Shown here one piece after another: positions 257 through 64,000 of a stretch of DNA of 64,000 nt (position 1 is its first letter; every line of letters starts with the position of its first letter). Made by a program: the position numbers and the translations under genes. Under the pieces are notes generated by a model. It was not told where the DNA came from and did no database searches. It was given only the letters and a program-made list of their open reading frames with translations. Source of the DNA: Candidatus Latescibacterota bacterium (GTDB lineage: Bacteria; Latescibacterota; UBA2968; GCA-2709665); contig CAXXXF010000006.1 in the NCBI GenBank assembly GCA_963667175.2, positions 1 through 64,000 of the forward strand, given 5' to 3'.

Positions 257-1050
257 CTATCGTCGACGCTTCAGCAGGAAGATCATTTCTGGCGCGTCGG
301 GGACCTATCGGTTTCCGGTCAAAAGACCCGAATTCCCCCACGGTCTCGAGACTGGCGGCGTGGAAAAGAGCTTTGAGATGAGGATAGGTATATACGCTCA
401 TCCTGAATGGCTCTTCTTCCTCGGACAGGGGCCCGGCGGCCTTCATACAGCCTGAAGATAAACCGGCCGGCGAATACCATATTGACCGGATCGAATCCTT
501 CCTTGACGAAGAATCTCCGGATGGTCCGACCGGTCCCGTCGCCAGGCCGGCCACTCCAGCTCCAGATGTTCCTCGCCGTCGCCGGATAGGAGTTTGTCGA
601 AGCGGGGATTGAACACGTCGAACGCGAGGACGCCTCCATCCTTCAGATGTCTCCCGGCGTTTGTCAGAGCCGCCAGCTGGTCCTCCACGGTGTACATGTG
701 CTGCAAGGGTCTGAATGGGATGATAACCAGGGAGAAACGATCTCTGAGAGAAAAGGGTCCTGAAATCACCCTCGACAACGCGTACTCTGCGTGTGAGGCC
801 CTGCAGGTTCTTTAGCGAGCTTTGCGCGCAGAACCTCCAGCATCGCGCGAGAAGCATCGACCCCCGTGACATCGTGGCCCCGCCGTGCATGCGGCAACGT
901 GATTCTGCCGGTCCCGCAGCCCAGCTCCAGGACATGCCCGCCGTACTCACCGGCCAGATTCAGATAGAAATCTCTGTCAACCAGGTCTTTCTTCGCGCTG
1001 TACGCGGCGTCGTAGTGCTTCGCCGCCAGACGGTAGGCATCATCGATCAT
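257..1050 (-). pseudogene. Class I SAM-dependent methyltransferase, about 5 frameshifts
   Basis: VLELGCGTG motif; the protein is pieced together from ORF-track frames 766-1050, 153-950, 443-778 and 319-639. Confidence 0.8.
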
Positions 1051-1881
1051 CGCGAGTCTCCGATCGCATTCTCCGGGCCAACCAGTTTCTCCCTCAGTTC
1101 GATCGCTGCCCGGTAAGCATCCGCAAGGAATTCAGATGGAGCTTGAGCGAAATCCTGGGGCACTGACTCGATCATAATGGGACCCCGGCGGGGATGCGGG
1201 ATATGCTCTTGCAACGGTATCCCAATTGACAATTCCCTTCATCGGCAACCAGTGAACGTCGCTATGGCCGTCAGTATCCGAGAAGTGCGTCGTGAGAAGA
1301 CGATGCGCCCACTTCCCGAGCACGGCGCCGGGAGTACTGGAATACAGGAAGTCGTGTGAGCTATCGTAACACACGCCGAGGCTCGCCAGGGGAAGCTCAG
1401 TCAGAATGAAATCAACGCGATCGGTCAGCCTTGTATTCTCCAGAGCCAGCGCGACCCCGCAGTTTGCCGCCTCCTCGCCCAACCGCCGGAAGATTTCCAG
1501 GCCTTCCTCACAAGGTGGAGGCGGTGTTGGCCCCTTCGTCACGTGAAGCACGATGAAGGAAATGGAATGCCGGCTGCAGTACTCGATCAGCTTGAGATTC
1601 TCATTCGCCAACGCGTCCCGTTTACCGGTCCGGTCGGACCAGAAAGCATTCGCGTTGTCGTAGGGTGCGTGGACGTGATCGACGGCGAGCCCGACATCTG
1701 CGGCCATTCCCGGCATTTCGTGGGCACGACCCGATACAACCAGGGGTTCTTTGTTGCCCATCCACAGAAAGGTGTGACTGAATCCACTCTGTCTGATCAG
1801 ACTCAAGCGTTCAGCCAGAGGCAGGTCGTAGCCGAACCAGGAAAATATGCCGAGAGGGGCCCGGGCGCCACTTGAGATCAT
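1047..1881 (-). pseudogene. Sugar phosphate isomerase/epimerase TIM barrel, frameshift near 1190
   Basis: ALEN, YDSSHD, THFSD and HWLP motifs; C-terminus (GPIMIES) in frame 1047-1232; ATGA overlap with next gene. Confidence 0.8.
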
Positions 1882-1937
1882 GGGTTGCTCGCTTCTTGAT
1901 TTTGTACCATTGGTGAACCGCGACCGCCGCCAGAAGT

Positions 1938-2057
1938 CGGGCGCCTGCCTGCGCAGCGTACTGCCTGCCTGTGCGGAGCACGCCTGCCTGCGCAGTGCCC
2001 TGCGCTGCAGGCAGGCAGACAGGCGCTGCAGGCAGGCCCACAAGGGACGCCCCTACA
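1938..2057. repeat. GTAG-type REP-like palindrome carrying three nested CTGCCTG...CAGGC micro-insertions
   Basis: Empty version CGGGCGCCCACAAGGGACGCCCCTACA at 28774-28800; 93-bp insert at 1945-2037. Confidence 0.85.
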
Positions 2058-2322
2058 AGGCGAAGGAGAGCGATTTAGTGAAGTTTACGATTGATAAGGT
2101 AGAGCAAAACTGGCAGTGTGCTGCGCGTTCGCTGGGCCGCCGGCTGTGACGTACAAAGCGTACCTTGACGCGGTCGAGTCCAGGATGACGAAAGGATTTC
2201 GGTTGAATTTCTCTCTCCACGGCCGATCGAAAACGATGGTTGGTTGCAGCTTCGCTGCCACAGGCGATCTGTCTCACGGTAGATCAGCCTTCATTCACAG
2301 CAATGCAAGGACGTTTCAGCTT

Positions 2323-3123
2323 TCATGAGTCAGACATCCAGCTATCCCTGCCGTAATCGAATGCTTCAAAGTCGTCGCGGTACATGCTGTAGGTCAGAGC
2401 GGCCAGATCGGAGCTGTACGCGGTGGCCAGAGGCACGTGGACCGTCGGGTTTCGCTTCTCCGAGGCAAGGGCGACCGTCTCCTCTGGCGCACCGAGCCGT
2501 CTCAGAATCGCACGAAAATCTTCGGCGAAATTCTCAAATCGGCCTACGAAATCATAGGAAACGACGTCCTGCATCAGAATCCGGGTCTGCGCATTGAAAT
2601 GGCCGTCGTAAATGGCGTCAGGTTTCAACTCGTAACGTATCTTCGCGCGACAGTCTGACAGGAAGTGAACGAAGTCTGCAAACGTAACCTGAGCGCGGGG
2701 ACTCTCATCGCTGGCAGGATAGTTGAATTCTTCCCGTATCGCATCCTGCAGCCACAGATACTGGGTATCCCTCGCGTTTCCGATCTTCGACTTGTAGGCC
2801 GAGTGCAATCGATGAAACGGATTGCGGACAAAACAGAATCTCACCCATTCCGTCGAGGTCAGCATCTCAACGATCTCTTCAGTGCTAAATCGGGCGAGAA
2901 ACAACCCACGATCGAGACCGTGGACGTCGTTCGGATTCCCCGGCGCCGACTTTCCGGCCAGGTGATATAACGCCACCTTAACCGTCGTACAGGCGACTTT
3001 GGGTAACGTCATGCACAGGCATTTGTACTCAGGTACAACCCACCCGTGGTAAGAGAAACTCTGGTTAACATCGTTTTCCCGTGCTGTCCAGATAAGCGCT
3101 GCCAGATGTTTCGCTTCGTCCAT
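2323..3123 (-). CDS. Sulfotransferase family 2 protein
   Basis: PKVACTT, FVRNPFHRLHSAY and YDFVGRFE motifs. Confidence 0.9.
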   Translation of the reverse strand: MDEAKHLAALIWTARENDVNQSFSYHGWVVPEYKCLCMTLPKVACTTVKVALYHLAGKSAPGNPNDVHGLDRGLFLARFSTEEIVEMLTSTEWVRFCFVRNPFHRLHSAYKSKIGNARDTQYLWLQDAIREEFNYPASDESPRAQVTFADFVHFLSDCRAKIRYELKPDAIYDGHFNAQTRILMQDVVSYDFVGRFENFAEDFRAILRRLGAPEETVALASEKRNPTVHVPLATAYSSDLAALTYSMYRDDFEAFDYGRDSWMSDS

Positions 3124-3159
3124 ATCTGCCTCAAGCGGTCGTCCCAATACAGGTGGGCA

Positions 3160-3573
3160 TCAAAGCCGCTGTTGTTTCTTGAGTTCCGGGACGATGTGGT
3201 TCCGCAGAATGGGATTCAGCGGATGTTTTCCCGATTCCAGGTCCGACATGGATGCCCATGCGATCTCGAGCACTTCGTCCTGGTCGGGAACGGGTTCCCC
3301 TTCAAAACCCGCCGTGTAAGCCCTGACCCTCACGATGCGCCGTTCTCCGGTTCCATCAGGGTCGGCCAGACGTTCGTATTCCCCGAAGAATTCAGGATCC
3401 GTCGGGGTAATTTTGAGCTCTTCCTTCAACTCTCTTCGCAGTGTCTCCAGGTCCGACTCGCCGGCCTCGACCTTTCCGCCCGGCAGGAGATAATCATCGA
3501 TGCCGTCGCATTTTACGAGCAGGAGCCCATCGGGCGTAATCAGAATTCCAGATATGCGAACGAATGTCTTCAT
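3160..3573 (-). CDS. NUDIX hydrolase
   Basis: PGGKVEAGESDLETLRRELKEEL Nudix box. Confidence 0.92.
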   Translation of the reverse strand: MKTFVRISGILITPDGLLLVKCDGIDDYLLPGGKVEAGESDLETLRRELKEELKITPTDPEFFGEYERLADPDGTGERRIVRVRAYTAGFEGEPVPDQDEVLEIAWASMSDLESGKHPLNPILRNHIVPELKKQQRL

Positions 3574-3623
3574 TGCCTGCTTTCAGGCTTCGGTGAAGGC
3601 GAGATCGTCTGTGAAAGACTCGA

Positions 3624-3668
3624 TGTTAACGGGGAGATCCCTTGTCGATCCACAGTCCCCACGGATTG
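3624..3668 (-). other. Shrunken attC-like remnant
   Basis: TGTTAAC-GGGGA-GATC...GATC..TCCCC short hairpin in spacer. Confidence 0.3.
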
Positions 3669-3678
3669 TCATTCCTGT

Positions 3679-4173
3679 TTACGCCAATTCCTCCACCTTC
3701 AGGGACTTAACCGTTACAGTGGACCCCCACCCCGGTCCGATACATACCGGCCCAATGAGGGCACTGTAGTTGTTCCGTTGAAACTCATCTCCGGTCTCGC
3801 CCTCGTTGGAATAGCGCAGCTTTCCGTCGACCAGAACTTGCATGTAGTTTTCCTGTATCTCCCACGTCACCCTAACCCATGTATCCCGCGGAACCTGCCC
3901 CTGTCCCTCCGCGAAGAACGTATGGCCGTAGACCGGTTCGTAACACGCCATCTCTTCAAGTGCGACTTCCCAGTTCAAGATTACGTGCCCCTTCGCGAAA
4001 TGGAGCCGCAGGTTTGTTGAATCCGTCTTCGCCACCGCTTCCATCCGCAGCGGTACGGCGTAAATACCAGGAGTGCGGACATATCCGTATCCCGAAAGGC
4101 TCAGCTGCTCACTGTCGCATTTTGCGACACATTCGCTGACCGGGACCAGCCCGGAAAGTGGAATCTCTACCAT
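3679..4173 (-). CDS. Hypothetical protein (beta-sandwich-like)
   Basis: 164-aa ORF with GGAGG RBS. Confidence 0.7.
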   Translation of the reverse strand: MVEIPLSGLVPVSECVAKCDSEQLSLSGYGYVRTPGIYAVPLRMEAVAKTDSTNLRLHFAKGHVILNWEVALEEMACYEPVYGHTFFAEGQGQVPRDTWVRVTWEIQENYMQVLVDGKLRYSNEGETGDEFQRNNYSALIGPVCIGPGWGSTVTVKSLKVEELA

Positions 4174-4185
4174 CTCTTCCTCCGC

Positions 4186-5025
4186 TCAAATCAGCCCGAT
4201 TTTCCTAAACAGAAACAGGGCTTCAACGGTAAAGCTCGCCCTGTGTTCCTCCCCGTGCCCGGTAATCCAGCCTCCGTCCTCCTGTTGATTGCCCGTCACA
4301 CTGGCCAACGACAATTCGAAGAGGTCTTCCGCAACGTCACCGGCAAGATGGCTGGCGTGCGCAATGGAGATGACGTCTCCCGGATCCCCTTTGCCCTGTT
4401 TCACGGTTTCATACAATAGCTTCTTGCAACCGCTGACAATCTGTTCGTTCGCCCCATTGCCGGATCCACGGAGATGAAACAGAGGCAACGCCATCCAGTG
4501 CGTGTGGTTGTAGTCGGGAAATCGCTCGCCGTTCCATCCACACCGGACAAAATCCACGCCTTTTGCGAAGTCTACCTCGTGCTGCAGGCCCGATTCCATC
4601 AGTTTGCAGCACAGCGCCGAGGTCAGCCAGACCTGGTTCCCGTACCTGCCGGGCAGCATCCAGAAAGGCGGATTGAAATCCACGATCTCCTCCGGCTCAT
4701 CCCAGCTTCCGTCTTCACGCTGGGTTCTGCGGAGAAAATCCAGCGTATCCAGCAGCACCGGGCTGTTCCGGTCTCCAATCCAGTTCAGCCATTGTAGCGC
4801 GACGAATGTCGCGGTGATAATCGACAGGTCGCCCTCAAAGTCTTTGTCGGTTCTCGTCCAGCCACCGTCGTCTCGCTGATTGACGGCGAGAGCCTCGATG
4901 ACCTCGCCACGACTGCAATCACCCATTGCGAATCTGGCCAAGCTTGAAAGGACGGGATCGTCCGAAGCAAGGACGAAAGCCACGGCTCTATCCGGATCAA
5001 TTCCGCTCACGATTCCTTCCTCCAA
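4186..5025 (-). CDS. Prenyltransferase/squalene oxidase repeat protein
   Basis: Three QxxDGxW repeats. Confidence 0.85.
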   Translation of the reverse strand: MEEGIVSGIDPDRAVAFVLASDDPVLSSLARFAMGDCSRGEVIEALAVNQRDDGGWTRTDKDFEGDLSIITATFVALQWLNWIGDRNSPVLLDTLDFLRRTQREDGSWDEPEEIVDFNPPFWMLPGRYGNQVWLTSALCCKLMESGLQHEVDFAKGVDFVRCGWNGERFPDYNHTHWMALPLFHLRGSGNGANEQIVSGCKKLLYETVKQGKGDPGDVISIAHASHLAGDVAEDLFELSLASVTGNQQEDGGWITGHGEEHRASFTVEALFLFRKIGLI

Positions 5026-5049
5026 TGGTCACTCGAACAGGTGGCCGAA

Positions 5050-5138
5050 AACGAACAATACTCAATTCAGCGAAGCGGTTAAAACACACACGGTAAGATG
5101 ACTGCGTCCGCTCCGGTCCAGCTGGAAGTACGTCGCGG
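5050..5138 (-). other. Degenerate attC-like site
   Basis: AACGAAC-AATACT..CAGC...GCTG..AGTA-CGTC; contains family motif GCGAAGCGGTT. Confidence 0.45.
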
Positions 5139-5173
5139 GCGAAGATTCAGCCCTCACCACCGGGCGTACGGAT

Positions 5174-5935
5174 TTACATGATCGGCCTGAACCTGGCCTG
5201 CAGAATCCTCTGGCTCGACGACTCACCGAACGGCACGCCGCAGCCCCGCAGTTCCTCCACGACAGCGTGGTAATCATAACTCAATCTGTGATTTGCCACG
5301 TTCCAATCCTGCCCGTCCCAGCTCACGGTGGCATATCCAATGCGACGGTCCCCATCATACGGAAATCCGACTGAGTCGATGATCGCATACCGCTGACCGC
5401 AAGGTACGCCGAAGGAAGCATAATGGAGGTGTCCCGCTACAATAAGATTTGCCTTCACACTCCCGAGCAGTACCCTAGCCTCTTCCTCTGGCGTCACGGT
5501 CAGAAGTCCGAAGGGGTCCGGATCGAGGACCAGTACGCCGGTCACGTCGGCAGGCGTCGCGTGCACGATGAGTAGATCGTCGTCGGGAGACGTGCCGCCC
5601 GGCGGGGTTATCCTGTGCTCGAAGGGCAAACTCTTCAGATAGCTCAAGCCATCGGACCCCAGTTTCTCTCTGACCCAATCCGCGCCGTCGTCCGAATACC
5701 CTTCATCATAGACGAACAAATCCGCATTGCCGTAAACCGCGGGAATGCAAAGATCTCGAATCATGTCCAGGCTCTCGGTCGGTCGGGGTCCGTTCAGCAC
5801 CAGATCTCCGGCGACCACCAGACTGTCAATCCGTTGTCTCTGCAGGTCCTCGAGAACGGCGTCGAGCGCAGCGGCGTTTCCGTGAATATCTGCGATCACC
5901 GCGACCGTATATAACTGGCGATTATTCTTTGACAT
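5174..5935 (-). CDS. Metallophosphoesterase
   Basis: DIHGN, GDLV, GNAD and GHLH motifs. Confidence 0.92.
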   Translation of the reverse strand: MSKNNRQLYTVAVIADIHGNAAALDAVLEDLQRQRIDSLVVAGDLVLNGPRPTESLDMIRDLCIPAVYGNADLFVYDEGYSDDGADWVREKLGSDGLSYLKSLPFEHRITPPGGTSPDDDLLIVHATPADVTGVLVLDPDPFGLLTVTPEEEARVLLGSVKANLIVAGHLHYASFGVPCGQRYAIIDSVGFPYDGDRRIGYATVSWDGQDWNVANHRLSYDYHAVVEELRGCGVPFGESSSQRILQARFRPIM

Positions 5936-6503
5936 ATAGAGATCTTTGTACCCGCTTCAAATCATACGCGAATTGGTACAGTTCACCGAAATCCACGGAT
6001 TCCGGGCCGAACAACTCCGGGGCATGAGTGAAATGAACGGCCCGAACTTCGACAATTTTGCTGTGTGGATCCGGATCAGACCTGTCCTCGGTATTTCGGA
6101 CCACGTTCGCCCACGATACGACACGCACGTGCGCCGGATGCGGGATGTGGGGCGGCCTGGGGCGGTCGTTTCGAGAGACACAGTGATACATCCCGATCGG
6201 ATGAAGATTCTCCGGAACGCAGCCGGTCTCCTCCATCAATTCGCGACGGCCGGCCTCCTCCCAGCTCTCGCCGGGCTGGACGGTGCCTCCCGGCAGGACC
6301 CATTTCCCGTTGGACCGCCTGGTCATGAGACAATGCGTTTCCGATACGAACGGAATGACATAAGACGAGCCGCAAACGGTCGACGCCAGATCTTCATCGA
6401 ACCTGCGGAAGTGGACACCGGGACGAAGTTGTCCCTTCTCCCCGCTGAGTACGGGGTATTTCGAGATCAATTGATCGAAATGCGCAGAGTCCACGTTCAG
6501 CAT
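5922..6503 (-). CDS. NUDIX hydrolase
   Basis: PGGTVQPGESWEEAGRRELMEETG; overlaps downstream gene. Confidence 0.9.
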   Translation of the reverse strand: MLNVDSAHFDQLISKYPVLSGEKGQLRPGVHFRRFDEDLASTVCGSSYVIPFVSETHCLMTRRSNGKWVLPGGTVQPGESWEEAGRRELMEETGCVPENLHPIGMYHCVSRNDRPRPPHIPHPAHVRVVSWANVVRNTEDRSDPDPHSKIVEVRAVHFTHAPELFGPESVDFGELYQFAYDLKRVQRSLYVKE

Positions 6504-6582
6504 GTGTCTGGTTTTCCTGCTCGCGTCGTATGATGACCGGGCCGTCTGTTACTCGCCCCGGTTGGCCGGGCGGCACATCCGT

Positions 6583-6955
6583 ATCACTCCCCCCTTTTGG
6601 GGGAGTCGCAGAAGCCGAGCCGGTCCCTGAGCTTTCGTTACCTGAGCCTGTCTAAGGATCGAGGGGCCGGCGACGGCTGATGCGGTGGGGGGATCTCAAC
6701 GCCTTACCGTGTCAAGGCAGCGTGAATTAACCTCGATTTGAAATTTTCCGGGAACGTTAATTCGAATATACGCAAGTAAATAAAGGCGATTTGACTTCGG
6801 ATTTCCAGGAACCTTCAGGTCACCGGACGTGAACGGAAAGGATGTCCCTTCGGACGCCCATTTCGGCCCGTTTTGAAAGGCTTCGTCGCGGCTCCGCGTT
6901 GCTGTTTTCTTCGAATTAAGGTTAATAGATCCGCAATTTGAGTCGAAGCCTTACT
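6583..6955. repeat. Composite palindromic repeat copy 1 (TCACTCCCCC..GGGGGAGT family), interrupted by MITE
   Basis: Colinear with 7806-7957. Confidence 0.8.
6727..6925. mobile_element. MITE copy 1 (~200 bp)
   Basis: Terminal inverted repeats TTAACCTCGATTTG...CGAATTAAGGTTAA; 5 copies in window. Confidence 0.85.
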
Positions 6956-6963
6956 GTAACATT

Positions 6964-7656
6964 CTAATCGGCATTCGCGATCGAAGCGATCGCCGAAGGC
7001 AGTTCTTCCAAGTCGGAAATTGTCTCGTCCGGGAGTTCATCCGGCACACGAGGTTCCAGCGCCGCGTACCTGCCTTGCCTCATCCATACGGTCCGGAGAC
7101 CTACCTGCTTCGCCGGGATGATATCGTTGTCGAGGCGATCGCCGATCATAATCGCCTCCGAAGGCGCAAATCCCGCCCGGTCAAGTATTGTGCGGAAGAA
7201 TCGCTCATCCGGCTTCTTGATCCCGAGGCTGCCTGACACGTCCGTATGGCGAAACCATCGCAATACACCAAGATCGTCCAGGACGTCGACGATGTCCGCC
7301 GGCGCGTTGCCGGCCAGCGCGAGCGTGTATTCTCCAGCCAAGCGTTTGAGAACCACATCGGCCCCGGGATACAGCCTGGAACCGAGTGCCTGGATCTCCG
7401 GGTAATGCGATCGCACGTCTTTGGTGATCTCGTTGAACAGGCGCGTGTCAGGCCTGGAAAAATGCCACGTGATGGCGTGCATGGCGCTTGGAACGAACTG
7501 CGATATCTTCTCGCTGTCCAACTGTTTGTACTCTTCAATGGACAACTCAAAGCCGAAGTTGCCAAGCGTGGTTCGATGCGCCTCCATCAACGCATCCTGT
7601 TGACCGACGGCATCGAGAAGGGTCTCTCCGATATCGAACAACAGCACCGAAATCAT
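6964..7656 (-). CDS. HAD-family hydrolase
   Basis: FDIGETL, KPD and GDRLDND motifs. Confidence 0.92.
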   Translation of the reverse strand: MISVLLFDIGETLLDAVGQQDALMEAHRTTLGNFGFELSIEEYKQLDSEKISQFVPSAMHAITWHFSRPDTRLFNEITKDVRSHYPEIQALGSRLYPGADVVLKRLAGEYTLALAGNAPADIVDVLDDLGVLRWFRHTDVSGSLGIKKPDERFFRTILDRAGFAPSEAIMIGDRLDNDIIPAKQVGLRTVWMRQGRYAALEPRVPDELPDETISDLEELPSAIASIANAD

Positions 7657-7694
7657 GCGAATCTCACACTGATCTACAAAAGACGCAGCGCGAC

Positions 7695-7799
7695 GTCGTC
7701 AGGCGCCATTCGCTCGTTCCAATCACCAGTACCTGGCGCGGCCTCGCTTTACTGAGCCGCAACCAAACAGGTGCAATTGAAAACGCGCGCCCGTTCGAT
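7695..7799 (-). other. Degenerate attC-like site
   Basis: Arms CGTT-CCAAT-CACC / GGTG-CA-ATTG-AAAACG, ending GTTCGAT. Confidence 0.45.
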
Positions 7800-7805
7800 G
7801 GACCA

Positions 7806-7957
7806 ATCACTCCCCCTTGAGGGGGAGTCGCAGAAGCCGAGCCGATCCCTGAGCTTGTCGAAGGGCCGGCGACGGCTGATGCGGTGGGGGGATTCTAACG
7901 ACTTACCGTCCGCAAGTAGCGTGAATTGACATGTACGCATTTTGCATAGAAGTCACA
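7806..7957. repeat. Composite palindromic repeat copy 2
   Basis: Similar to 6583-6955; includes CCCTGAGCTTGTCGAAGGG unit. Confidence 0.8.
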
Positions 7958-8932: not shown

Positions 8933-8935
8933 TGC

Positions 8936-56322: not shown

Positions 56323-57027
56323 TTACCCCTCGTATTGAGCAGGTGGCTCAAGTAGCCTGAGTTGGGAGACCTCGCGACCCATTCGTCTGGCAGCGCCGTG
56401 GAATGAATTCTGTTCGACGTCCTCATTGCCCCATTGATCCCAACCCCCCCTTACAAAGCGAGCGAAGAGCTCCAAATAGGGCCCAGGTGAACACGCTTCA
56501 ATGATGTCATAAATCTCGTCCGGCTTGCGTGAGTGCTCACGCTTTCTGGTAGGGACCAGATTCACCTGGGTCCTACCCGCGGGAAGCGTCCGCATCGAGC
56601 CGCGAACACCGAAAAGAACCAACTCAGTGACATTCCTGAAATAAAAGCCGACGCCCCGCCCATCGGGGCCTCCATCCTTGCGGATTTTGTACCAGACAAT
56701 ATTCGTCTTGTACGTAAATCCCCATGTCTTCATCACTTCCAAGCCCCAGGCCAATAACGCGTTAGGAACCCATAGATATAGGTGAGAATCCTTACCCGTT
56801 AACTGCGGCACAGGCAGCTCGCAGATTTCATCCAATGTCATTGTCGGATAGCGCATTAACCGCTGATGTTCCGGAGCCACCTTGCCGGTACGATTCTGAA
56901 ATCTCCACGGAGGGTCCGCCAATATCGTTGTGTACGGTCCGCTTGCTTTTGACGCCAGGTCCTGCGAAGCCGTCGGTCGCGGGATATTAACAATCTTCGT
57001 CAAAGAGCGGCTCCTTTGTACGTCCAC
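56323..57027 (-). CDS. MT-A70 family adenine methyltransferase
   Basis: ADPPW, LYLWVPN, EHSRKP and YLELFAR motifs. Confidence 0.93.
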   Translation of the reverse strand: MDVQRSRSLTKIVNIPRPTASQDLASKASGPYTTILADPPWRFQNRTGKVAPEHQRLMRYPTMTLDEICELPVPQLTGKDSHLYLWVPNALLAWGLEVMKTWGFTYKTNIVWYKIRKDGGPDGRGVGFYFRNVTELVLFGVRGSMRTLPAGRTQVNLVPTRKREHSRKPDEIYDIIEACSPGPYLELFARFVRGGWDQWGNEDVEQNSFHGAARRMGREVSQLRLLEPPAQYEG

Positions 57028-57240
57028 TCATCACGAAATTCGCTCTCAAGAATCGCGGATGCATGGCGCCATTCATGAATCTCGTAATTGCTGCGAATCG
57101 CGTCTGGAAAGTGTTCTATAGGCATGGTAGAAAGATAAGCCTCAGTGCGCGTCGTCGCAAGATTTCGTTAAGAACGATCGGACGACGAAGACACGGGTTT
57201 TCGTTCCGCATCTACAAGATATACCAACCTGAAATATTCA

Positions 57241-59216
57241 GTGCGCCGTGAAAAGGCGCGGAACTTCAGTGGGTGAGAGTCCCACCCGACAAGTGTTGCC
57301 ACAGTCGGTAGCAATCGGAGCGGGGACGTAGGAAACGACATCTCCGAAGCCTCCGGTGTAGAGGGTCGCAAGGCGACTTGGCGAGTATGCGGGCCGAAAC
57401 GTGAGTGAACGCTGCGCAGGCCTCGAAAAGGGTAATGCGGGAGCCGACCCGCCTGAATTTCGGGGAAGGCCGCCGTCGTTGGGGAAGCAGGCAACGCGAG
57501 CACCCAACGGTCCCGCCGGGGTAGTGGCGGAGGCACGTATACAAGGAGTTCCGACGCAACACGGGAAGCCCCAGGCGGTGGTGGAGACACCAACCGGCAG
57601 CCCGTGAGGGTCAGGCCGGGCCGCGTGGGGTGGCGGAGAGGCCCGTAGTACCTGAGAAGCCGGGTAATGCCGGCGGAGGAAAGGGGCCTTGGTTCAAGGG
57701 CAACGTCAAAGGAGCGAGAGCCTGGAGATTGGTATGAGCCTAAGACCTCCGGAAAAGGTTCGGAAGTTGCAGAGGACGTTGCATGCCAAAGCGAAGGAAT
57801 CGCCCGGCTACCGATTCTACGCGCTGTATGACAAGGTGTATCGCGAGGACATCCTGCTTTATGCGTACCGCTGCTGCAAGGCCAACGGCGGCGCGGCGGG
57901 CGTGGACGGCGAGACGTTTGCGGATATCGAGTCATATGGGCAAAAGCGGTGGTTAGGCGAACTGTCGGAAGCCGTAAGGAGCAAATCGTATCGGGTGTCT
58001 CCGATCCGTCGGGTGTATATCCCCAAGCCGAACGGGAAGCAAAGGCCGCTGGGCATCCCGACGGTGAAAGATCGGGTGGTGCAAACCGCGGCGATGCTGG
58101 TATTGGAGCCGATCTTTGAGGCGGACCTGCCAGCGGCGCAGTATGCGTACCGTCCGAAACGGAGTGCGCACGACGCCATCAGGGCGGTTCACAGTCTGGT
58201 GAGCCGTGGCCATACGCAGGTGATCGACGCGGACTTGAGCGGTTACTTTGACACGATCCCGCATGCCGAGCTGATGAAATGTGTGGCGCGTCGCATCAGT
58301 GACGGGCGTATGCTGCGCCTGGTCAAGCTGTGGCTGACCGCGCCGATTGAGGAGACCGACAAGCGGGGCCGCAAACGTCGAACGACGCCGAACAAGGATC
58401 AGGGAAGGGGGACACCGCAAGGCGCCCCGATCTCGCCCCTGCTGGCGAACCTGTATATGCGGCGGTTCATTCTGGGATGGCAGGTTCGGGGACATCAGCA
58501 ACGCCTGAAGGCTCATATTGTCAACTACGCGGACGATTTTGTGATCTGCTGTCGCGGCACCGCAAAAGAAGCGATGCGCGCGATGCGATCCATTATGAAG
58601 GCGCTCAAGTTGACGGTGAACGAGCAGAAGACGGGCATATGCACGCTTCCTGAAGGACGATTTGACTTTCTGGGCTACACCATCGAACGCTGTTACTCAC
58701 CAAAGACGGGAAAGGCCTATATCGGCACGCGCCCGTCAAAGAAGGCCATCCGGCACATCTGCCGGGCCATCAGCGAGGCAACGGCGCGGCGGTGGCTGCT
58801 GAAAGACCATCAAGAACGGATTGCCCACCTGAACCGAAAGCTAACAGGGTGGGGCAACTACTTCCGTCTTGGTCCGGTCAGCAAAGCCTACCGGAGTGTG
58901 GACAGCCACACCCGGCAACGGCTCCGCTGGTGGTTGTGCAACAAGTACCGAATACCGGGAAAGGGGACGTCCCGTCTCCCTGACGAGGTCCTCTACAATA
59001 CGTTGGGCCTGACCCGGCTGGAGGTGCAGACGCACAACCTTCCGTGGGCGAACGCATGACTCCTTGTCCGAGAGCCGGATGCGGTAAATCCGCACGTCCG
59101 GTTCGATGAGCGGGACGTGGAAACGGAGCGCGGAGCGGCTATGGAGGCACCGCCAGACGAAAGGGGCGGAAACAGATAGGCCTCTCCTACACCACCGCGC
59201 CACCTCTCGACTCTAC
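57241..59216 (+). mobile_element. Group II intron
   Basis: 5' GTGCG; domain V GAGAGCCGGATGCGGTAAATCCGCACGTCCGGTTC; 3' CTCTAC; putative EBS1 TGAATTT vs exon ATATTCA. Confidence 0.93.
57734..59059 (+). CDS. ltrA: Group II intron reverse transcriptase/maturase (no En domain)
   Basis: RPLGIPTVKDR, GTPQG, YADD, FDFLGY and X-domain GWGNYF. Confidence 0.95.
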   Translation: MSLRPPEKVRKLQRTLHAKAKESPGYRFYALYDKVYREDILLYAYRCCKANGGAAGVDGETFADIESYGQKRWLGELSEAVRSKSYRVSPIRRVYIPKPNGKQRPLGIPTVKDRVVQTAAMLVLEPIFEADLPAAQYAYRPKRSAHDAIRAVHSLVSRGHTQVIDADLSGYFDTIPHAELMKCVARRISDGRMLRLVKLWLTAPIEETDKRGRKRRTTPNKDQGRGTPQGAPISPLLANLYMRRFILGWQVRGHQQRLKAHIVNYADDFVICCRGTAKEAMRAMRSIMKALKLTVNEQKTGICTLPEGRFDFLGYTIERCYSPKTGKAYIGTRPSKKAIRHICRAISEATARRWLLKDHQERIAHLNRKLTGWGNYFRLGPVSKAYRSVDSHTRQRLRWWLCNKYRIPGKGTSRLPDEVLYNTLGLTRLEVQTHNLPWANA

Positions 59217-59392
59217 CGAAAACCGGTGGACTTGTCGTATAATCGATTGATTTTCAATAACATCAGTGGAGAATTTAACGAATTCCATTAAGAGTCCGGA
59301 ATCGGGCTGGCCGGCAAACGTTGGGGTTTCAAGTTGGACGGACTTATCGCTGTTGCTTGCCAGAGTGAGCATTTGCCCTGGCTCCTGGTTTC

Positions 59393-59526
59393 TAATCCTG
59401 CTTAATCCTGCAAATCCTGATCGGTTTTTCTGGTTTTTTTTCGCGTTTTTTCGTGTATTTCGTAGTTTCTGATGTTCGTTTTCTCGTGCTTTTTGGCTTT
59501 CATCCTGTCCATCCTGTCCATCCATG
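59393..59526. repeat. ATCCTG and TTCGYG short-repeat tract
   Basis: Similar to 26777-26843. Confidence 0.7.
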
Positions 59527-59671
59527 TTTGTTCCGTTTCATGGATTAATGGGGACCAAGAGAATCTGGCTTTACAAATCTCATTACAGACGGCGTGGAAT
59601 CAGCAGCCGGCAACCCGACAATGTTTCCAGCGTCATCCTCAGATCGAATGAGGCGCCCGTTTCACTCTGCG

Positions 59672-60298
59672 TCACTTCATCAGGAAGTTCCTGCCATACT
59701 GATACGCGATCTCAAGATTCCTTGCCATGTTGCTCGATGTTGCAAAGTGATCCGCCATACCAGGGAGGAGTGCGAACTCACAATGCTTCACACCCGCATC
59801 AGGGCGGAGGCGATCATGGGTGTATAACCGTCTCATGGCTTCAGCAATTCCAGCCTCTTCCAGACCCTCTAAAGTATTGCCCACCGGACAGAGAACGAGA
59901 GCTCTTTCGACTGAGAGTCGCGGAAACGGATAGGTCTCCATGGCAAACTGGTACTCGTACGCGTATCCGCAGACCCAAACCCGGTCGAACCATCCCTTCA
60001 GCTTTGCCGGACAGTCGCTCCACCAGACGGGAAAGACAAAGGCCAGGCCATCTGCCCTGCCGATCTTGCTGTGTTCCGCCTGCACGTCCGATGGTACGGG
60101 GAGAGTGGAGCGATTGCCCTGAACGTTCATCTCGCGAACGTACTCATCCGGACTCATCTCGCATTTAAAGTCCATTTCATACAAATCGCCGATCTCGTAT
60201 GAATGCCCACCGTCGTCGAGTCCTCGACACAACTCGCCCAGGACCTCCCCGGTGAAAGACCTCCTCGTCGGATGCGCAAAGACAATGTATGCGTGCAT
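59672..60298 (-). CDS. Flavodoxin-fold NAD(P)H oxidoreductase, copy 2
   Basis: Paralog of 53283-53909. Confidence 0.92.
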   Translation of the reverse strand: MHAYIVFAHPTRRSFTGEVLGELCRGLDDGGHSYEIGDLYEMDFKCEMSPDEYVREMNVQGNRSTLPVPSDVQAEHSKIGRADGLAFVFPVWWSDCPAKLKGWFDRVWVCGYAYEYQFAMETYPFPRLSVERALVLCPVGNTLEGLEEAGIAEAMRRLYTHDRLRPDAGVKHCEFALLPGMADHFATSSNMARNLEIAYQYGRNFLMK

Positions 60299-60651
60299 CA
60301 AGGGATCTCCGCCGGCAGCGGTGCAGGCCACGCCGCTGGACAACACGGCGCTGTCTTCGAAAGGAGTCTCAATCAGGCATGCGCCGTCACGACCGGCTGA
60401 AAGTAACCTGACTGTTCAGGTGTATGCCAGGCGATTTTCGAAAATCCGGCGCACTCCAGGGCCCGAGTGAACTCCTTGCGCGGGATTGCCCGGTAGCGGG
60501 TCCTTAGCTCTCTTACTTGCCACCCATTCGGTGCCCGGGTCATAATGAATAACCGAATCAGGCAGGTATCTGATTTCTTCGACCAGTCCCAGACCTGAAA
60601 CGTAATGACCTCGCGCTCCGATGCACCCTGAATGTTCGCGCCCTCAAACGA
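59672..60651. repeat. ~1-kb direct repeat, copy 2
   Basis: Colinear with 53283-54262. Confidence 0.95.
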
Positions 60652-61149
60652 CGGTTTTTCCGCGAGCAGCCGATCGTAATCTCGAATACTGGCAACCAAC
60701 AGTCCATCAGTCGTCATCGTGCGCCTGATGCTTCGGAGAGCGAGAGTCAGGTCTTCGTCAGTCAGGAGATGAGGCAGTGAGTTATCGCAACTGATCACAA
60801 CGTCGAATTTGTGGGCGAAGGCACATTCCACCTCACGAACATCGGCAACGGCGAATTCAATCTTCAGCCCCCGGTCAGCTGCTTCCGATTTCGCCCTTGC
60901 AATCGCCTTCGGGCTTAGATCTGACGCGAAGACTTCGTATCCCTGCCGCGCCAGGCCAATTGCCTGAGTGCCGATTCCACAAGAACAGTCCAGGACAAGG
61001 GATGCATTTACTGACGATTCACGTTGAATCAACCTATCCAATACACACGACTGCCGCTCGATTGCCGATTCCCACTCTGCGTAAACGTGATGGTAATCAG
61101 CAGCCAGGTCATCGTAAAAACGTCTGACGTCTTCGCTCAACGTTGGCAA
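60373..61149 (-). CDS. Class I SAM-dependent methyltransferase
   Basis: VLDCSCGIGTQ and DNSLPHL motifs. Confidence 0.92.
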   Translation of the reverse strand: MPTLSEDVRRFYDDLAADYHHVYAEWESAIERQSCVLDRLIQRESSVNASLVLDCSCGIGTQAIGLARQGYEVFASDLSPKAIARAKSEAADRGLKIEFAVADVREVECAFAHKFDVVISCDNSLPHLLTDEDLTLALRSIRRTMTTDGLLVASIRDYDRLLAEKPSFEGANIQGASEREVITFQVWDWSKKSDTCLIRLFIMTRAPNGWQVRELRTRYRAIPRKEFTRALECAGFSKIAWHTPEQSGYFQPVVTAHA

Positions 61150-61466
61150 CTCCCTCGTGTGACAAGACCATGAAGCGAGAGGAACTCCTTGCGAAGGGAT
61201 GCCTCGGATTCCCGTAGTCGGAACCTGTCCGCATCGGTGACGGCGTCAAGGACAAATGGATGCAAGTCAAGATCAGAAACTTCGGGTACAGCTTCATTCC
61301 GATGAACACTTCCCCACACGTAGACTGAGGCAAGCCGTTCATCGAATACTTCGCAATACACCGAGACGTGGTCCACCACGGCATCTCTGAAGAAGCCATC
61401 CGCGATGGCGTCGAGATTGACAAACCTGTCGAGGTCTTTTACAGCCACGACACCTCCTTCGCGCAC
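61137..61466 (-). pseudogene. Nucleotidyltransferase domain, probably truncated
   Basis: SVYVWGSVHR..SDLDL; runs into next gene. Confidence 0.6.
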
Positions 61467-61508
61467 GGGTCGCTGTCGCGTTTCGGGCGTGACTGACTAT
61501 GCAGGCCG

Positions 61509-62117
61509 CTATTCCGACAGTAACCCTTGCCAGCGATGCCCTTCAGGATACAAGACTTCCAACCCGGCCGCCAACCATCTCTTTGCCTCGGCGGACATCA
61601 GCGGCAGGCACGTTTCAAAGTCCAGATCATCTTTCGAACGAGGATTCCTGGCTTTGTACAGCAGTTGAACCTCAATCCGTATGCAGGGAACATTTCTGTA
61701 TGCGACGATCAAGTCTCTTCGTAGCCCGCCAATCAGTCTGCTGCGTTTGCTGAACCACCTGTCGCCTTCGCTCTCAGTCAACATGATCTGAAGCTGCCAT
61801 GCCTGTATGCCGGTATGACCCCATATGTCATGTATCCCGTAAGGCAGGTACTCTGACTCCGCCCATGGTCGCAATGAGCCGGGTGGATCAGCCGCGTACA
61901 GATGCCAATCCGAGAGCCAGCGCTGTACCTCGAGTTGTTGATCCCGGTACACGATGACGTCAATATCACCGTGGTCCCGTACACGGGTTCCCACGAACTG
62001 CTCTACCGCATGGCCGCCGGCGAGTCCCCACATGAAAGGATCGTTGGCGAACAATTTCGTCAACTCCTTGACGGACAAGGGTTTCCATTGGCTGAAGGGA
62101 ATCTCAGGAGTGGTCAT
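61509..62117 (-). CDS. Nucleotidyltransferase (ANT(2'')/Lnu-like superfamily)
   Basis: LAGGHAVE, RDHGDID and LLYKA..RSKDDLDF. Confidence 0.85.
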   Translation of the reverse strand: MTTPEIPFSQWKPLSVKELTKLFANDPFMWGLAGGHAVEQFVGTRVRDHGDIDVIVYRDQQLEVQRWLSDWHLYAADPPGSLRPWAESEYLPYGIHDIWGHTGIQAWQLQIMLTESEGDRWFSKRSRLIGGLRRDLIVAYRNVPCIRIEVQLLYKARNPRSKDDLDFETCLPLMSAEAKRWLAAGLEVLYPEGHRWQGLLSE

Positions 62118-62147
62118 ACAGGTCGCATTCTGCGCTTAAACGATATC

Positions 62148-62233
62148 CGCTAACGGTCCGGCACCCACGAACCTGCGTAGGGAGGTTGGGCGCAGGTGCG
62201 TGTGCACAGGAGCTGTGGGTACTCGTGTTACGC
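62148..62233 (-). other. attC site (best preserved)
   Basis: Minus strand: R'' GCGTAAC (contains TAA stop)-ACGAG-L'' TACCCACA...L' GTGGGTG-CCGGACC-R' GTTAGCG, 30 bp before next ATG. Confidence 0.8.
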
Positions 62234-63271
62234 GAACGTGAATTCGCCGGATACGCAATCCGGCTCCGTCGAAACCACCTCGGACCATATGGATGCAGTT
62301 TGTTCGAATGACAACTTGAGCTGAGACTTGCGCAGATTCTCATTGAGCAGCCACGAACCGGTTTCACCAGTACGAGCTGCATACCACGTAAAGGCATACA
62401 GGACGTCGCGTTTGTCGTCGAGCTCCGTGATCTCCTCACCCACCGCCAGGCGGGATGGATACGATGTGATGTGCCGCTCCACAACATGGGCGGGAGCGTT
62501 CGCGTATCTTGTTTCTACGTCATCCGCCGTAAGAGAGAACAGACGAACGATGCGACTCGCAATGGCTTCTTCATGGTGTTCGCGAGCCAGCACGCAAAAG
62601 CGAGTGAAAGCCCTTCCAAAGGACCGGTCACCCTGTCCCCATCTCTCCATCAGGCATGGGATTACCAGACGCGCGAGTTCCTGTATAGATATCCCAGCCG
62701 CGATCAGACGACCTGCCTGCAGATGTGACGTTACTCGATGGGCGAGCCGGGTTGCACGTCTGACTCGCTCGATTTGGCGCGCCCGGACAACCGAAGGATC
62801 AAATCGACCATCGGAGAGCCGGACAACGAAAGCAGGAGTATCGCAATCCTCAGACGCGTGAACCGATTGACCGAGATGGCCCTTGTCAGTCGCATGGAAA
62901 ATCCTCTCATTGGCCATCAGCTCATCCAGGTTAAGCTTGCCGTTGATCAAGTCGTCTGCCTCGTCGGCTGTGAAATGAAGCCGACCCGCGTCAACAGAAG
63001 TCGGCCACGAGTCTCGGGCCCACTCCCTTGTGATGGATAACGCAAGCTCGTCCACTCGTTTTGGGAGACCGTTGTCCGCCTCCCTGGTCTTAATGTAGAT
63101 GAGGTCTACATCTGATAGGGGCCAGGCCGTTCCTCGCCCCACGCTACCCCCAACAATCACGCCCGAAACGCCAGGAACAGATGCGATCCGTTCGATGGCT
63201 TCAACGGTTCGCTCCCGAAGAATGAGTTCCCAGTTTTCCAGGTGCCCCTGGAAGAGATCCGCTCTGAACAA
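62228..63271 (-). CDS. Nucleotidyltransferase domain protein
   Basis: GGSVGRG...SDVDL. Confidence 0.82.
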   Translation of the reverse strand: MFRADLFQGHLENWELILRERTVEAIERIASVPGVSGVIVGGSVGRGTAWPLSDVDLIYIKTREADNGLPKRVDELALSITREWARDSWPTSVDAGRLHFTADEADDLINGKLNLDELMANERIFHATDKGHLGQSVHASEDCDTPAFVVRLSDGRFDPSVVRARQIERVRRATRLAHRVTSHLQAGRLIAAGISIQELARLVIPCLMERWGQGDRSFGRAFTRFCVLAREHHEEAIASRIVRLFSLTADDVETRYANAPAHVVERHITSYPSRLAVGEEITELDDKRDVLYAFTWYAARTGETGSWLLNENLRKSQLKLSFEQTASIWSEVVSTEPDCVSGEFTFA

Positions 63272-63285
63272 ATCGAACTCACTTT

Positions 63286-63359
63286 CGCAAACGTCCCCAC
63301 GGTGCCCGAACCGCGAAGCGGTTGCGCGGAGGGCTCAGCCGGGCACGGTCGTATTAGCC
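63286..63359 (-). other. attC-like site
   Basis: CGCAAAC..GTGCCCG-AACCGCGAAGCGGTT...CGGGCAC..TCGT-ATTAGCC. Confidence 0.68.
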
Positions 63360-63393
63360 GGGGTATGGAGCTGCGCGCAAGGCACAAGATTGC

Positions 63394-64000
63394 TCAGGCT
63401 GGGAGACGATCTACGAAAAATTGGGTCGCTCTCTCGAATACTTCGTCGCGATGCTTTGCCAACCCGTGTGTATCGTCGGGAAAAACGACCAGCGAGCAGT
63501 CTCCACCAAAATCGTTAATATGCCTTTCGACTTGCCGCATTTCGTCCGTAGTTGCTACAGAGTCAAGTCCACCATGGAAGAGTAGAGCCGGTCTCTTGAT
63601 CTTTTCGGCCTGCCACAGCACGGATCTCTCTTCCAATGCCTTCTCGCGCGCAATAGGGTTGGCCGGAAGGAATCTGTCATGGTGAAGCCGCAGGACTCGT
63701 AAACTCGTACAGGTGCAGGTCGATACCGCACCCAGGAATGGTGAGGAAGGATTCGCCAGGGCCAGAAGGCTGAGAAAGCCACCGTAGCTGTTGCCAAACA
63801 GCGCGATCCTTCTGCCCGATCCAAATTGCTGCTGCCAAAAAACCCCACAATCAACCACATCCTGAACGTCCGAAACTCCGCAAACACCTTCATTGGCTCT
63901 CGCCAGATCATCGCCAAAGCCGGTAGAGCCCCTGTAAGCGACACGCACGACCTCGAAACCCTTGCGAACAAGCCACAGCGCCCATGAGTCGTTTCTATCG
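63394..64000 (-). CDS. S9 prolyl oligopeptidase family, 5' part outside window
   Basis: YRGSTGFG, GNSYGG, HGGLD and DTHG motifs. Confidence 0.9.
   Translation of the reverse strand, partial: DRNDSWALWLVRKGFEVVRVAYRGSTGFGDDLARANEGVCGVSDVQDVVDCGVFWQQQFGSGRRIALFGNSYGGFLSLLALANPSSPFLGAVSTCTCTSLRVLRLHHDRFLPANPIAREKALEERSVLWQAEKIKRPALLFHGGLDSVATTDEMRQVERHINDFGGDCSLVVFPDDTHGLAKHRDEVFERATQFFVDRLPA

Follow-up and report, generated by a model that had tools for sequence, protein, structure and literature searches.

The window, that is, the whole stretch of 64,000 nucleotides analysed here, very probably represents the integrase-distal half of a sedentary, integron-type cassette array of about 118 kb, which has its own attC family, reaches its right-hand end at about 117.9 kb of the same contig (C6), and is decaying after the loss of its recombinase. 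According to our gene list, the window is one long minus-strand run of 71 genes of unrelated function, in agreement with the approximately 70 genes given in a preliminary description of this DNA; same-strand runs average 2.6 genes genome-wide, as estimated from crude ORF calls. Pfam matches were obtained for 58 of the 126 minus-strand ORFs of at least 75 aa and for 3 of the 48 plus-strand ORFs of at least 120 aa, and all three of the latter are mobile-element genes. The cargo comprises methyltransferases, NUDIX, GNAT, APH, Metallophos and glyoxalase proteins as well as HicAB, Fic/Doc and DUF4160/DUF2442, which confirms the GNAT/NUDIX/methyltransferase-type and toxin-antitoxin content claimed beforehand; the small ORF upstream of the Fic/Doc gene (21931..22529) gave no Pfam match. 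The very large size that had been proposed was also borne out, since the array extends far beyond the window. Many adjacent genes in the window are separated by fewer than 25 bp, too little to accommodate an attC-type site.

The attC-type sites form a family that is confined almost entirely to the region from 29.7 to 117 kb of C6 in a genome of 5.5 Mb, always on the plus strand. Searching the whole genome with nhmmer yielded 20 matches with E < 0.01, all 20 of them on the plus strand of C6 between 29.7 and 101.5 kb, and 22 of the 23 matches at E ≤ 1.5 still fell on this strand and contig. Covariance model R1 matched ten times in the whole genome, always on the plus strand of C6, and model R2, run with filters off on C6:1-124 kb, gave 19 matches with E < 0.01, all on the plus strand and 78–154 nt long; the matches of both models at E < 0.1 were exclusively plus-strand. 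Sites were recognisable in 12 of the 49 window spacers of at least 50 nt (six R2 matches with E < 0.01, three marginal ones with E values of 0.026–0.088, and three detected by nhmmer alone; Table 1), and neither nhmmer nor R2 found any between positions 1 and 29.7 kb. The private attC family of the preliminary description is thus supported by nhmmer, the covariance models and covariation, but its estimate of about 25 hairpin-bearing spacers is reduced to these 12. From its five seed sites, those at 46178 and 62148 belong to the family, and those at 22550, 25092 and 25941 do not.

Table 1. Features located in the window (numbering as in contig C6)
Feature	Position	Strand	Evidence
Array, distal part (array from contig start to ~C6:117.9 kb)	1..64000	-	Pfam, ORF layout
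Fossil distal block, no recognisable sites	1..19900	-	74-93% identity, genus genomes
IS3-family insertion sequence, secondary coloniser	19927..21437	+	HTH_Tnp_1, rve
Fic/Doc toxin gene and small upstream ORF; candidate toxin-antitoxin cassette	21931..22529	-	Fic/DOC Pfam match
Partial attC-type site, 5' half only	29747..29820	+	nhmmer 29751-29780, E 0.002; R2 E 0.88
Marginal attC-type site	33609..33658	+	R2 15.6 bits, E 0.026
DUF4160/DUF2442 gene pair; candidate toxin-antitoxin cassette	33712..34409	-	Pfam
attC-type site, divergent subfamily, paired with 37709 site (homologous spacers)	34455..34532	+	nhmmer E 2e-09
attC-type site	35607..35697	+	R2 17.4 bits, E 0.0065; nhmmer
attC-type site, divergent subfamily	37709..37788	+	nhmmer E 7e-09
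attC-type site, 25 nt downstream of FMN_red gene stop	41194..41281	+	R1 29.3 bits, R2 36.6 bits
Marginal attC-type site	42734..42814	+	R2 E 0.088
HicA/HicB toxin-antitoxin cassette	43536..44131	-	Pfam
Marginal attC-type site	45098..45193	+	R2 E 0.03
attC-type site, earlier seed	46174..46263	+	R2 47.9 bits; fold z -2.44
attI-like module with remnant of recombinase 3' end, begins directly after TAAC	47691..47879	+	Sequence comparison
attC-type site, best in window	52181..52272	+	R1 74.5 bits, R2 57.5 bits
Group II intron with reverse transcriptase/maturase (RT 57689-59059)	57241..59216	+	Rfam, Pfam
attC-type site, earlier seed; 3' core overlaps stop of gene 62228-63271	62147..62236	+	R2 33.5 bits; sequence
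attC-type site	63285..63362	+	R2 30.6 bits

The sites are about 80–100 nt long. Their plus (bottom) strand can fold so that TAAC and GTTA pair as inverse cores; the fold further comprises an unpaired spacer, a stem of 9 bp that is bulged on one side, and a branched, variable centre. The sites follow gene stops at a distance of 0–120 nt on the 3' side, the polarity being ORF, RYYYAAC-like core, GTTRRRY-like core, and about a third of them carry GAC in place of AAC. Using a structure model extended by hand on seven sites, we obtained 87.8% pairing cells in the sites, compared to 73.1% in shuffles and 29–45% in slid controls; compensatory changes were present in 19 of the 27 pairs, and the AAC/GTT positions were paired in 13 and 14 of 16 sites. 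Judged by the covariance model of the lineage itself, the sites show the defining characters of attC, namely an imperfect palindrome of approximately 57–141 nt with RYYYAAC...GTTRRRY cores, L boxes, extrahelical base(s) and a variable centre, placed 3' of an ORF. The fold energies of the 12 window sites ranged from z = −2.44 to +1.36 relative to shuffles and were below −2 in only two cases, which contradicts the earlier expectation that the hairpins would outperform shuffled spacers. Because the energies are no better than those of shuffles, the evidence for the sites is taken from family conservation and covariation instead. Overlap of the R'' core with stop codons, previously put forward as a hallmark, occurs at chance rate (AAC overlapping the stop in 8 of 71 window genes vs. 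530 of 4164 background ORFs). RNAalifold returned no consensus structure from a MAFFT alignment of 19 sites, the 8-mer GGTTCGCA was not enriched (6 matches vs. 3.2 expected, with 14 of 100 shuffles reaching 6), Rfam, which contains no attC family, matched only a group II intron, and a tRNA search found no tRNA. A constrained-fold scan of all spacers anchored on AAC...GTT was dropped, since a pattern identical to its reverse complement cannot tell the strands apart, and scores were indeed alike for top and bottom.

Compared to relatives, gene order is altered in one part of the window and conserved in another. The interval from 40 to 60 kb of the window is common to the arrays of the genus in reshuffled order, with 78–97% identity, whereas at least the first 19.9 kb are collinear in all 14 genus genomes searched. 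The preliminary description had named conserved gene order as evidence against an array, and this order is indeed what the first 19.9 kb present; co-orientation and gene content are therefore the only evidence that this part consists of cassettes. One shared cassette end is identical in 64 of 64 bases up to CTAAC, and the homology breaks exactly after TAAC; beyond the shared CTAAC, this genome continues with an attC body and relative G013 with the attI-like site beside the recombinase. In a small sample of alignment (HSP) ends against relatives, four right ends were located about 1–17 nt from a site core and two left ends 27 and 57 nt inside a site. Parts of the window are matched by contigs from metagenome runs of sponge and marine origin, and one contig of run X2 joins position 41,248 to 52,245, both inside sites. 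The main joint table for contigs of four metagenome runs, a type of data blind to rare excision, contained no cassette-sized joints.

These data bear on the alternative that there is no cassette array at all, but an island of accessory genes, biased to one strand and passed on vertically, with structured intergenic repeats of the REP or terminator type. Such an island would agree with the collinear first 19.9 kb, the unremarkable fold energies, the tight packing of many genes and the presence of other, MITE-like repeat families in the same spacers. We nevertheless consider it very improbable, given that the repeats are restricted to one strand of one 90-kb stretch of the 5.5-Mb genome, have an AAC/GTT core with covarying stems, and coincide exactly at the core with a homology break, and that the gene units are reshuffled among relatives and were found joined from within one site to within another in the X2 contig.

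The right-hand end of the array is marked by a conserved flank gene at C6:122,171 and by a 180-bp attI-like remnant at C6:117,713-117,898, which lies beside an empty integrase slot now filled by unknown ORFs and a broken IS1595. The attI-like module occurs in four copies in the genome, all within this array. An intI gene and attI had been predicted to the right of position 64,000; the attI-like end does lie there, at about 117.9 kb, but the slot is empty, and a second attI-like remnant is located inside the window. We found no integron integrase in the assembly (approximately 5% of the genome is unassembled), which extends the earlier observation for the window to the entire assembly: TIGR02249 scores reached at most 88.6 bits (cut-off 265), only three PF00589 genes are present, and a tblastn search with the IntI of G017, a member of the same family, matched only Xer-like genes. 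The recombinase known from close relatives (see below) likewise left no remnant in the assembly apart from the 3'-end remnant in the attI-like module. The array therefore classifies as a CALIN, with at least two attC-type sites and no integron integrase within about 4 kb, and not as a complete integron, which has an IntI with the additional domain adjoining the array.

An IntI-related recombinase is present at the array boundary of the close relatives G011, G013 and L019, and as a remnant in G002. In the former three, the gene points in the same direction as the cassettes, with its 3' end towards the first of them, the sites lie beyond this end on the strand opposite to the recombinase, and a conserved region of 130 bp between the recombinase stop and the GTTAG core represents a putative attI-like site. 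Instead of a divergent, canonical IntI, these genomes contain a co-oriented and non-canonical enzyme at the array end. It is 39–41% identical to a true IntI, with VchIntIA as the best solved relative, but scores only 206–241 bits with TIGR02249 (cut-off 265), which places it outside IntI. The IntI-specific insertion in the I2 helix region is absent (about 41 columns in the alignment, about 42 residues relative to 2a3v), and the N-terminal extension is HARP-like by a weak match below the cut-off (E 0.011). An IntI above the cut-off was found in none of the 14 genus genomes, all 14 of which contain attC-type sites. The same family includes a canonical IntI in G017 (464.5 bits) and a fragment in G036. 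A related recombinase is also present inside the array of G016, in opposite orientation. Five of six identical recombinase copies in G020 lie beside arrays and were first taken as support for a cognate integrase; they are now read as IS91-family elements, because each is followed by an ORF resembling the N-terminus of an IS91-type transposase, presumably its zinc-binding part as judged by eye.

We give even odds to the array-end recombinase of the relatives being the cognate enzyme of the arrays; the genomes showing this arrangement are close kin and therefore amount to roughly one independent observation. Somewhat more tentatively, the attC-like arrays of Latescibacterota may have been built and serviced by this insertion-less sister of IntI, with its HARP-like N-terminus and co-oriented gene, acting at the 130-bp attI-like site that ends in GTTAG. 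The enzyme lost from the present array was probably not a canonical IntI. Alternatively, a canonical IntI with the I2 insertion could have built the array and since been lost genus-wide, the insertion-less recombinase and its 130-bp site being an independent integrative module with attC cores as its target, in the manner of IS1111-attC elements and group IIC-attC introns. This would account for the canonical IntI and the IntI fragment in the same family, for sites with every canonical attC feature including the one-sided bulge, for four copies of the module in the array together with C-terminal recombinase fragments inside the arrays of relatives, as repeated insertion would give, and for a second recombinase fragment 2 kb upstream of the intact gene in G013; the 55–70% identity of the recombinase family across phyla is likewise typical of mobile genes. 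We regard this history as unlikely, because all 14 genus genomes contain the sites and none an IntI above the cut-off, no R2 site lies within 40 kb to the left or 20 kb to the right of the G017 IntI, save one at 19 kb, and in G011 the recombinase directly adjoins the array on one side and the conserved chromosomal flank gene on the other, further genes of an element being absent. Passages in PMC8138268 and PMC7790495 treat the IntI-specific insertion as essential for attC recombination, and one inserted helix is thought to have made the integron integrase possible (Escudero et al., PMC4792948 and PMC7790495). Our literature search, from which supplements were excluded, turned up no account of attC arrays with integrases that lack the insertion, nor of Latescibacterota integrons.

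In the favoured reading, the cassettes are mostly single minus-strand genes, each intact one ending in an attC-type site. By analogy with integrons, they would have been inserted and excised at the AAC/GTT core by a tyrosine recombinase, and new cassettes would enter at the attI-like site at the right-hand end, at about C6:117.9 kb. In this genome the recombinase gene has been deleted, with unknown ORFs and a broken IS1595 taking the slot, and the array is therefore frozen and decaying. Near the right end the sites are still dense and well preserved; they are few in the window and absent from the first 30 kb, a part now inherited vertically. MITE-like repeats, the IS3 element and the group II intron have moved in.

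Among bacteria, integrons are the principal known means of accumulating and exchanging single genes; the sedentary chromosomal kind is exemplified by the superintegron of Vibrio cholerae, whose attC sites are of the VCR type. The Latescibacterota array shares with the latter a very long, co-oriented series of mostly single-gene cassettes, sites that are alike within the lineage and carry a bulged base on the bottom strand, toxin-antitoxin cassettes and GNAT/NUDIX/methyltransferase-type cargo, and the polarity of the cores relative to the ORF. It differs in that the assembly lacks an IntI, sites occupy only about a quarter of the window spacers, the distal 20–30 kb are fixed in the genus, and the recombinase of the relatives lacks the IntI insertion. 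Integrons with inverted integrases exist, e.g., in Treponema denticola, and resemble G011, G013 and L019 in having a recombinase co-oriented with the cassettes and facing the first one with its 3' end; the T. denticola-type enzymes carry the IntI-specific domain, unlike the Latescibacterota enzyme. A CALIN is a cluster of attC sites without an integron integrase (Cury et al. 2016, PMC4889954). The present array resembles one in having at least two attC-type sites in a row and no integron integrase nearby, and a standard tool would probably file it as such, if its attC model sees the sites. Unlike a usual CALIN, it spans about 118 kb, and comparison with relatives shows where the integrase slot used to be and where attI-like remnants persist. 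We are thus dealing with an uncultured lineage that has arrays of more than 100 kb and textbook-looking attC sites, yet no canonical integrase in the 14 genus genomes searched. If an insertion-less enzyme did build them, cassettes would be captured via folded attC without the domain regarded as the defining innovation of integrons, and the present array would be a natural knock-out of how arrays decay after enzyme loss. The genome offers a picture of such decay, with intact sites near the entry end, eroded ones in mid-array and a fixed, vertically inherited tail. Standard integron finders key on the IntI insertion and would call such systems integrase-less at best.

The group II intron in the window is multi-copy, with identical copies elsewhere in the genome. 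It is oriented opposite to cassette transcription, and the nearest hairpin ends 35 nt upstream. Since no R2 site flanks its ends at 57241 or 59216, we did not assign it to the group IIC-attC introns in spite of this orientation. MITE-like repeat families also occur in spacers of the array.

Contig C6, of which the window forms the first 64 kb, is 721,850 bp long and belongs to an assembly of 5.52 Mb in 18 contigs, which is 95% complete and has a G+C content of about 59%. Pfam scans were run on 174 ORFs of the window, consisting of 126 minus-strand ORFs of at least 75 aa and 48 plus-strand ORFs of at least 120 aa. Matches were obtained for 58 of the 126 minus-strand ORFs vs. only 3 of the 48 plus-strand ORFs. 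All three plus-strand matches belong to mobile elements, two of them to an IS3-family element and the third, a reverse transcriptase, to a group II intron. The gene list comprises 71 minus-strand genes, which bears out the preliminary description of about 70 genes, all on that strand. This co-oriented run is exceptional compared to the genome-wide mean of 2.6 genes per same-strand run (from crude ORF calls), and it extends on C6 to about 107 kb and then beyond an IS cluster to about 118 kb. The gene content is a mixture of unrelated functions, including SAM methyltransferases, sulfotransferases, ankyrin proteins, flavodoxin-like reductases, four NUDIX and four GNAT enzymes, five APH-type kinases, four metallophosphoesterases, a glyoxalase, HicAB, Fic/Doc and a DUF4160/DUF2442 pair. 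This cargo agrees with the preliminary description. A Flavodoxin_2 cassette region occurs twice in the array (53283-54262 and 59669-60651, 92% identity), and the minus-strand methyltransferase gene at 443-1050 is broken into two frames (ORFs 766-1050 and 443-778) and is probably a frameshifted pseudogene.

The spacers between these genes contain a family of attC-type sites. Single-site nhmmer queries gave weak cross-matches, every one on the plus strand of C6. An iterated nhmmer profile yielded 20 genome-wide matches with E<0.01, which without exception fall between 29,751 and 101,543 on the plus strand of C6, and a later profile (E<=1.5) yielded 23, 22 of them on the C6 plus strand and one on contig C14. 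A covariance model built from seven sites (R1) recognised 16 sites within C6:1-124 kb, all on the plus strand, and a whole-genome scan, in which 150 of 3957 candidates were scored, placed 10 out of 10 matches there as well. A second model, R2, drew on 35 sites, some of them from relatives. Applied to the window with filters off, it gave six matches with E<0.01 and three with E values of 0.026-0.088, all on the plus strand, while the other 29 matches (E 0.19-9.7) were distributed over both strands, with 12 on the minus strand. In C6:64-124 kb, R2 found 13 matches with E<0.01 and one with 0.047, again exclusively on the plus strand. Both the array and the attC family private to it are real and reach well past the window, as had been proposed.

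Together with the sites detected only by nhmmer, 12 of the 49 window spacers of at least 50 nt contain a supported site, about half of the roughly 25 spacers claimed beforehand. Among the five sites suggested as seeds of a model, those at 62148 and 46178 turned out to be family members, but those at 22550, 25092 and 25941 did not. The densest and best-scoring sites are found in C6:64-102 kb, with sparse sites in the window. Neither nhmmer nor R2 detected any attC-type site of the window left of 29.7 kb, and the cassette status of the left 30 kb is no longer demonstrable. The coordinates are compiled in the table.

Features of the array (coordinates on C6)
Feature	Position	Strand	Remarks
attC-type sites, R2 E<0.01	starts 35607, 41194, 46174, 52181, 62147, 63285	+	
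attC-type sites, R2 E 0.026-0.088	starts 33609, 45098, 42734	+	
attC-type sites, nhmmer only	29751 (partial), 34455, 37709	+	
IS3-family element	19927-21437	+	Pfam matches in its two ORFs
Group II intron	57241-59216	+	Rfam 57267-59216; 5' end put at 57241
MITE-like repeat	6727-6873, 12590-12810, 14797-14951, 24315-24477, 24593-24746		
attI-like module copies	47,691-47,879 (in window); 87,209; 106,353; 117,713-117,898		

In the sites, read on the plus strand, the core TAAC (or TGAC) precedes GTT, and a conserved arm pairs with the 3' arm, on which one base is bulged. Inner hairpins, one to three per site and variable in sequence, form the centre, and a GTTA core closes the site. About a third of the sites carry GAC instead of AAC, and in one of these the partner base is also changed, keeping the pair. 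On the R1 alignment, 87.8% of the cells are paired, compared with 73.1% for shuffled and 29-45% for slid controls, and compensatory changes were seen at 19 of 27 pairs, values obtained on an alignment that was itself fitted to R1. The coding (minus) strand shows the order stop codon, RYYYAAC-like motif, stem and GTTRRRY-like motif, and the bulge falls on the arm that corresponds, for the bottom strand, to the double-primed one. This polarity matches the canonical attC layout, described in part in PMC8138268.

Two further hallmarks claimed for the spacers did not hold. Folding of the 12 candidate sites as single-stranded DNA gave z scores between -2.44 and +1.36 relative to dinucleotide shuffles, and only 2 of the 12 fell below -2, so that by energy alone the hairpins are no better than chance. 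Stop codons overlapped by an AAC core, the second of these hallmarks, are not commoner here (8/71) than elsewhere in the genome (530/4164). The real signal is a sequence-and-structure family of sites.

Gene order in related genomes differs between parts of the window. The region of 40-60 kb recurs in the arrays of the genus with 78-97% identity, split into blocks of one or a few genes whose order has changed, as anticipated for cassettes, but that of 1-19.9 kb is conserved: G009 and G012 are collinear with it (87-93%), as for the most part are G013, G001 and others (74-87%). In G009 and G013, where this was checked, the recombinase end is at the other side of the array from the collinear block. 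On our reading, an old distal tail has turned into ordinary chromosome. Parts of the 45-55 kb region were also found in sponge and marine metagenome contigs, and the contigs of four runs cover most bins of the 40-60 kb region, although contigs cannot reveal rare excision. One contig of run X2 joins position 41,248 to 52,245, each within an R2 site, with 12 other letters between them, and may derive from a relative in which these two cassettes are adjacent.

That no integrase is in view, as noted beforehand, applies to the whole genome, in which the best match to the integron integrase model TIGR02249 scored 88.6 bits vs. a cut-off of 265. The genome contains three PF00589 genes; a tblastn search with the true IntI of the related genome G017 returned two Xer-like genes and nothing else, and neither a gene nor a translated remnant of the relatives' array-end recombinase was detected in it. 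In standard terms, the array is a very large CALIN, a cluster of attC sites without an integron integrase.

Among the relatives, R1-type sites are present in 14/14 genomes of the genus, 19/21 of the family and 14/19 of the sister family searched, clustered in arrays that span at most about 150 kb. Canonical IntI was confined to G017 (464.5 bits), apart from a fragment in G036, and occurred in none of the 14 genomes of the genus. A tyrosine recombinase is located at one array end in G011, G013 and the genome of locus L019, with the sites located past its 3' end on the opposite strand, and a remnant occupies this position in G002. The array-end recombinase shares 39-41% identity with the G017 IntI, lacks about 41 aligned columns at the position of the IntI insertion and reaches 206-241 bits with TIGR02249, below the cut-off of 265. 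The closest solved structure is VchIntIA (2a3v; 151 bits, compared to 125 for XerA and 88 for XerD), which matches in two stretches with about 42 unmatched chain residues between them. The full-length protein (P0001) has 376 aa, including a 95-aa N-terminal extension with a weak HARP match (E 0.011; 15.7 bits, under the cut-off of 25). The family is large, with 55-70% identity across phyla, and G016 carries a related recombinase within an array in reversed orientation.

Several further observations concern these recombinases. Of the 41 genomes searched, only G017 has a full canonical IntI (loci L004, L012, L013, L046); no R2-type site occurs within 40 kb upstream of it and one lies 19 kb downstream. 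An IS91-linked recombinase is encoded directly behind it. Recombinase fragments in or beside arrays (G007, G011 and G013, e.g., L007 at G013:C1:4760309-4760548) nearly always retain the C-terminal part, with a common start point at about residue 240, and some carry an in-frame TAG. Contig L030, labelled as a Gemmatimonadota MAG, contains R1-type sites (six with E<0.001, one with E 0.13) and a C-terminal fragment of the Latescibacterota-type recombinase (79% identity), which could reflect inter-phylum transfer or a binning error.

The entry end of the array was located by comparison with G011, in which the gene to the right of the recombinase matches C6:122,171-122,876 with 79% identity. The 130 bp from the recombinase stop to the first cassette, together with the final codons of its gene, are found as four attI-like copies in the source genome, all within the array and all starting directly after TAAC. 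The stretch between 117.9 and 122.2 kb contains ORFs without known function and a broken IS1595 transposase. Because the flanking gene, the attI-like remnant and the DNA between them are assembled, the integrase slot is present and empty rather than hidden in an assembly gap. The expectation of intI and attI to the right of 64000 thus holds for an attI-like end at about 117.9 kb, but the slot is empty and one remnant lies within the window. Moreover, one cassette end is identical in the source genome and G013 over 64/64 bases as far as CTAAC, past which the source genome continues into the attC body of site 101,448 and G013 into the attI-like region adjoining the recombinase. From the sequences, this junction appears to be a direct sign of exchange at the core.

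Comparison with its kin suggests that the array is a decaying representative of an integron variant with an integrase devoid of the hallmark domain. We consider the chances about even that the relatives' insertion-less recombinase is the cognate enzyme. The main rival is that a canonical IntI, now lost, served the array and that the insertion-less module is a hitchhiker targeting attC sites, which accounts for the repeated internal remnants too. Six identical or near-identical copies of a 314-aa tyrosine recombinase in G020 (L037-L042), five of which abut arrays in one fixed orientation, were rejected as support for a cognate integrase, because each is followed by an ORF which we take, by eye, to be the zinc-binding N-terminus of an IS91-type transposase. 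They are accordingly read as IS91-family elements beside arrays; ISCR elements, which are IS91 relatives, are neighbours of class 1 integrons. The G017 loci L004/L044-L046 are grouped with these copies. With these copies set aside, the evidence for a cognate enzyme consists of one group of close kin and the CTAAC junction. On our reading, the array body ceased turning over once the enzyme was lost, in this presumed order of events. Our literature search found no description of Latescibacterota integrons or of attC arrays with insertion-less integrases; related work comprises Cury 2016 (PMC4889954), IntegronFinder 2.0, Ghaly 2022 (PMC9668308), Escudero 2016 and 2020, a Treponema paper (PMC3607928) and a group IIB intron paper (PMC7923331).

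The array also harbours mobile elements. Its entry-proximal part contains a cluster of IS elements (C6:107475-115597; DDE_Tnp_1_4, IS3, IS21), which encloses genes for a Cap15-like cyclic-dinucleotide receptor and a nucleotidyltransferase (CBASS-like). A MITE-like repeat, about 150-220 bp long and bounded by terminal inverted repeats, occupies several spacers of the site-less left part, and 36 BLAST matches on 10 contigs were obtained for it genome-wide. Full, identical or near-identical copies of the group II intron are present on contigs C4, C6, C14, C15 and C18, and many further matches span only its first ~450 nt. ORF-less forms of the intron, in which position 57,689 is joined to 59,066, occur in metagenome contigs.
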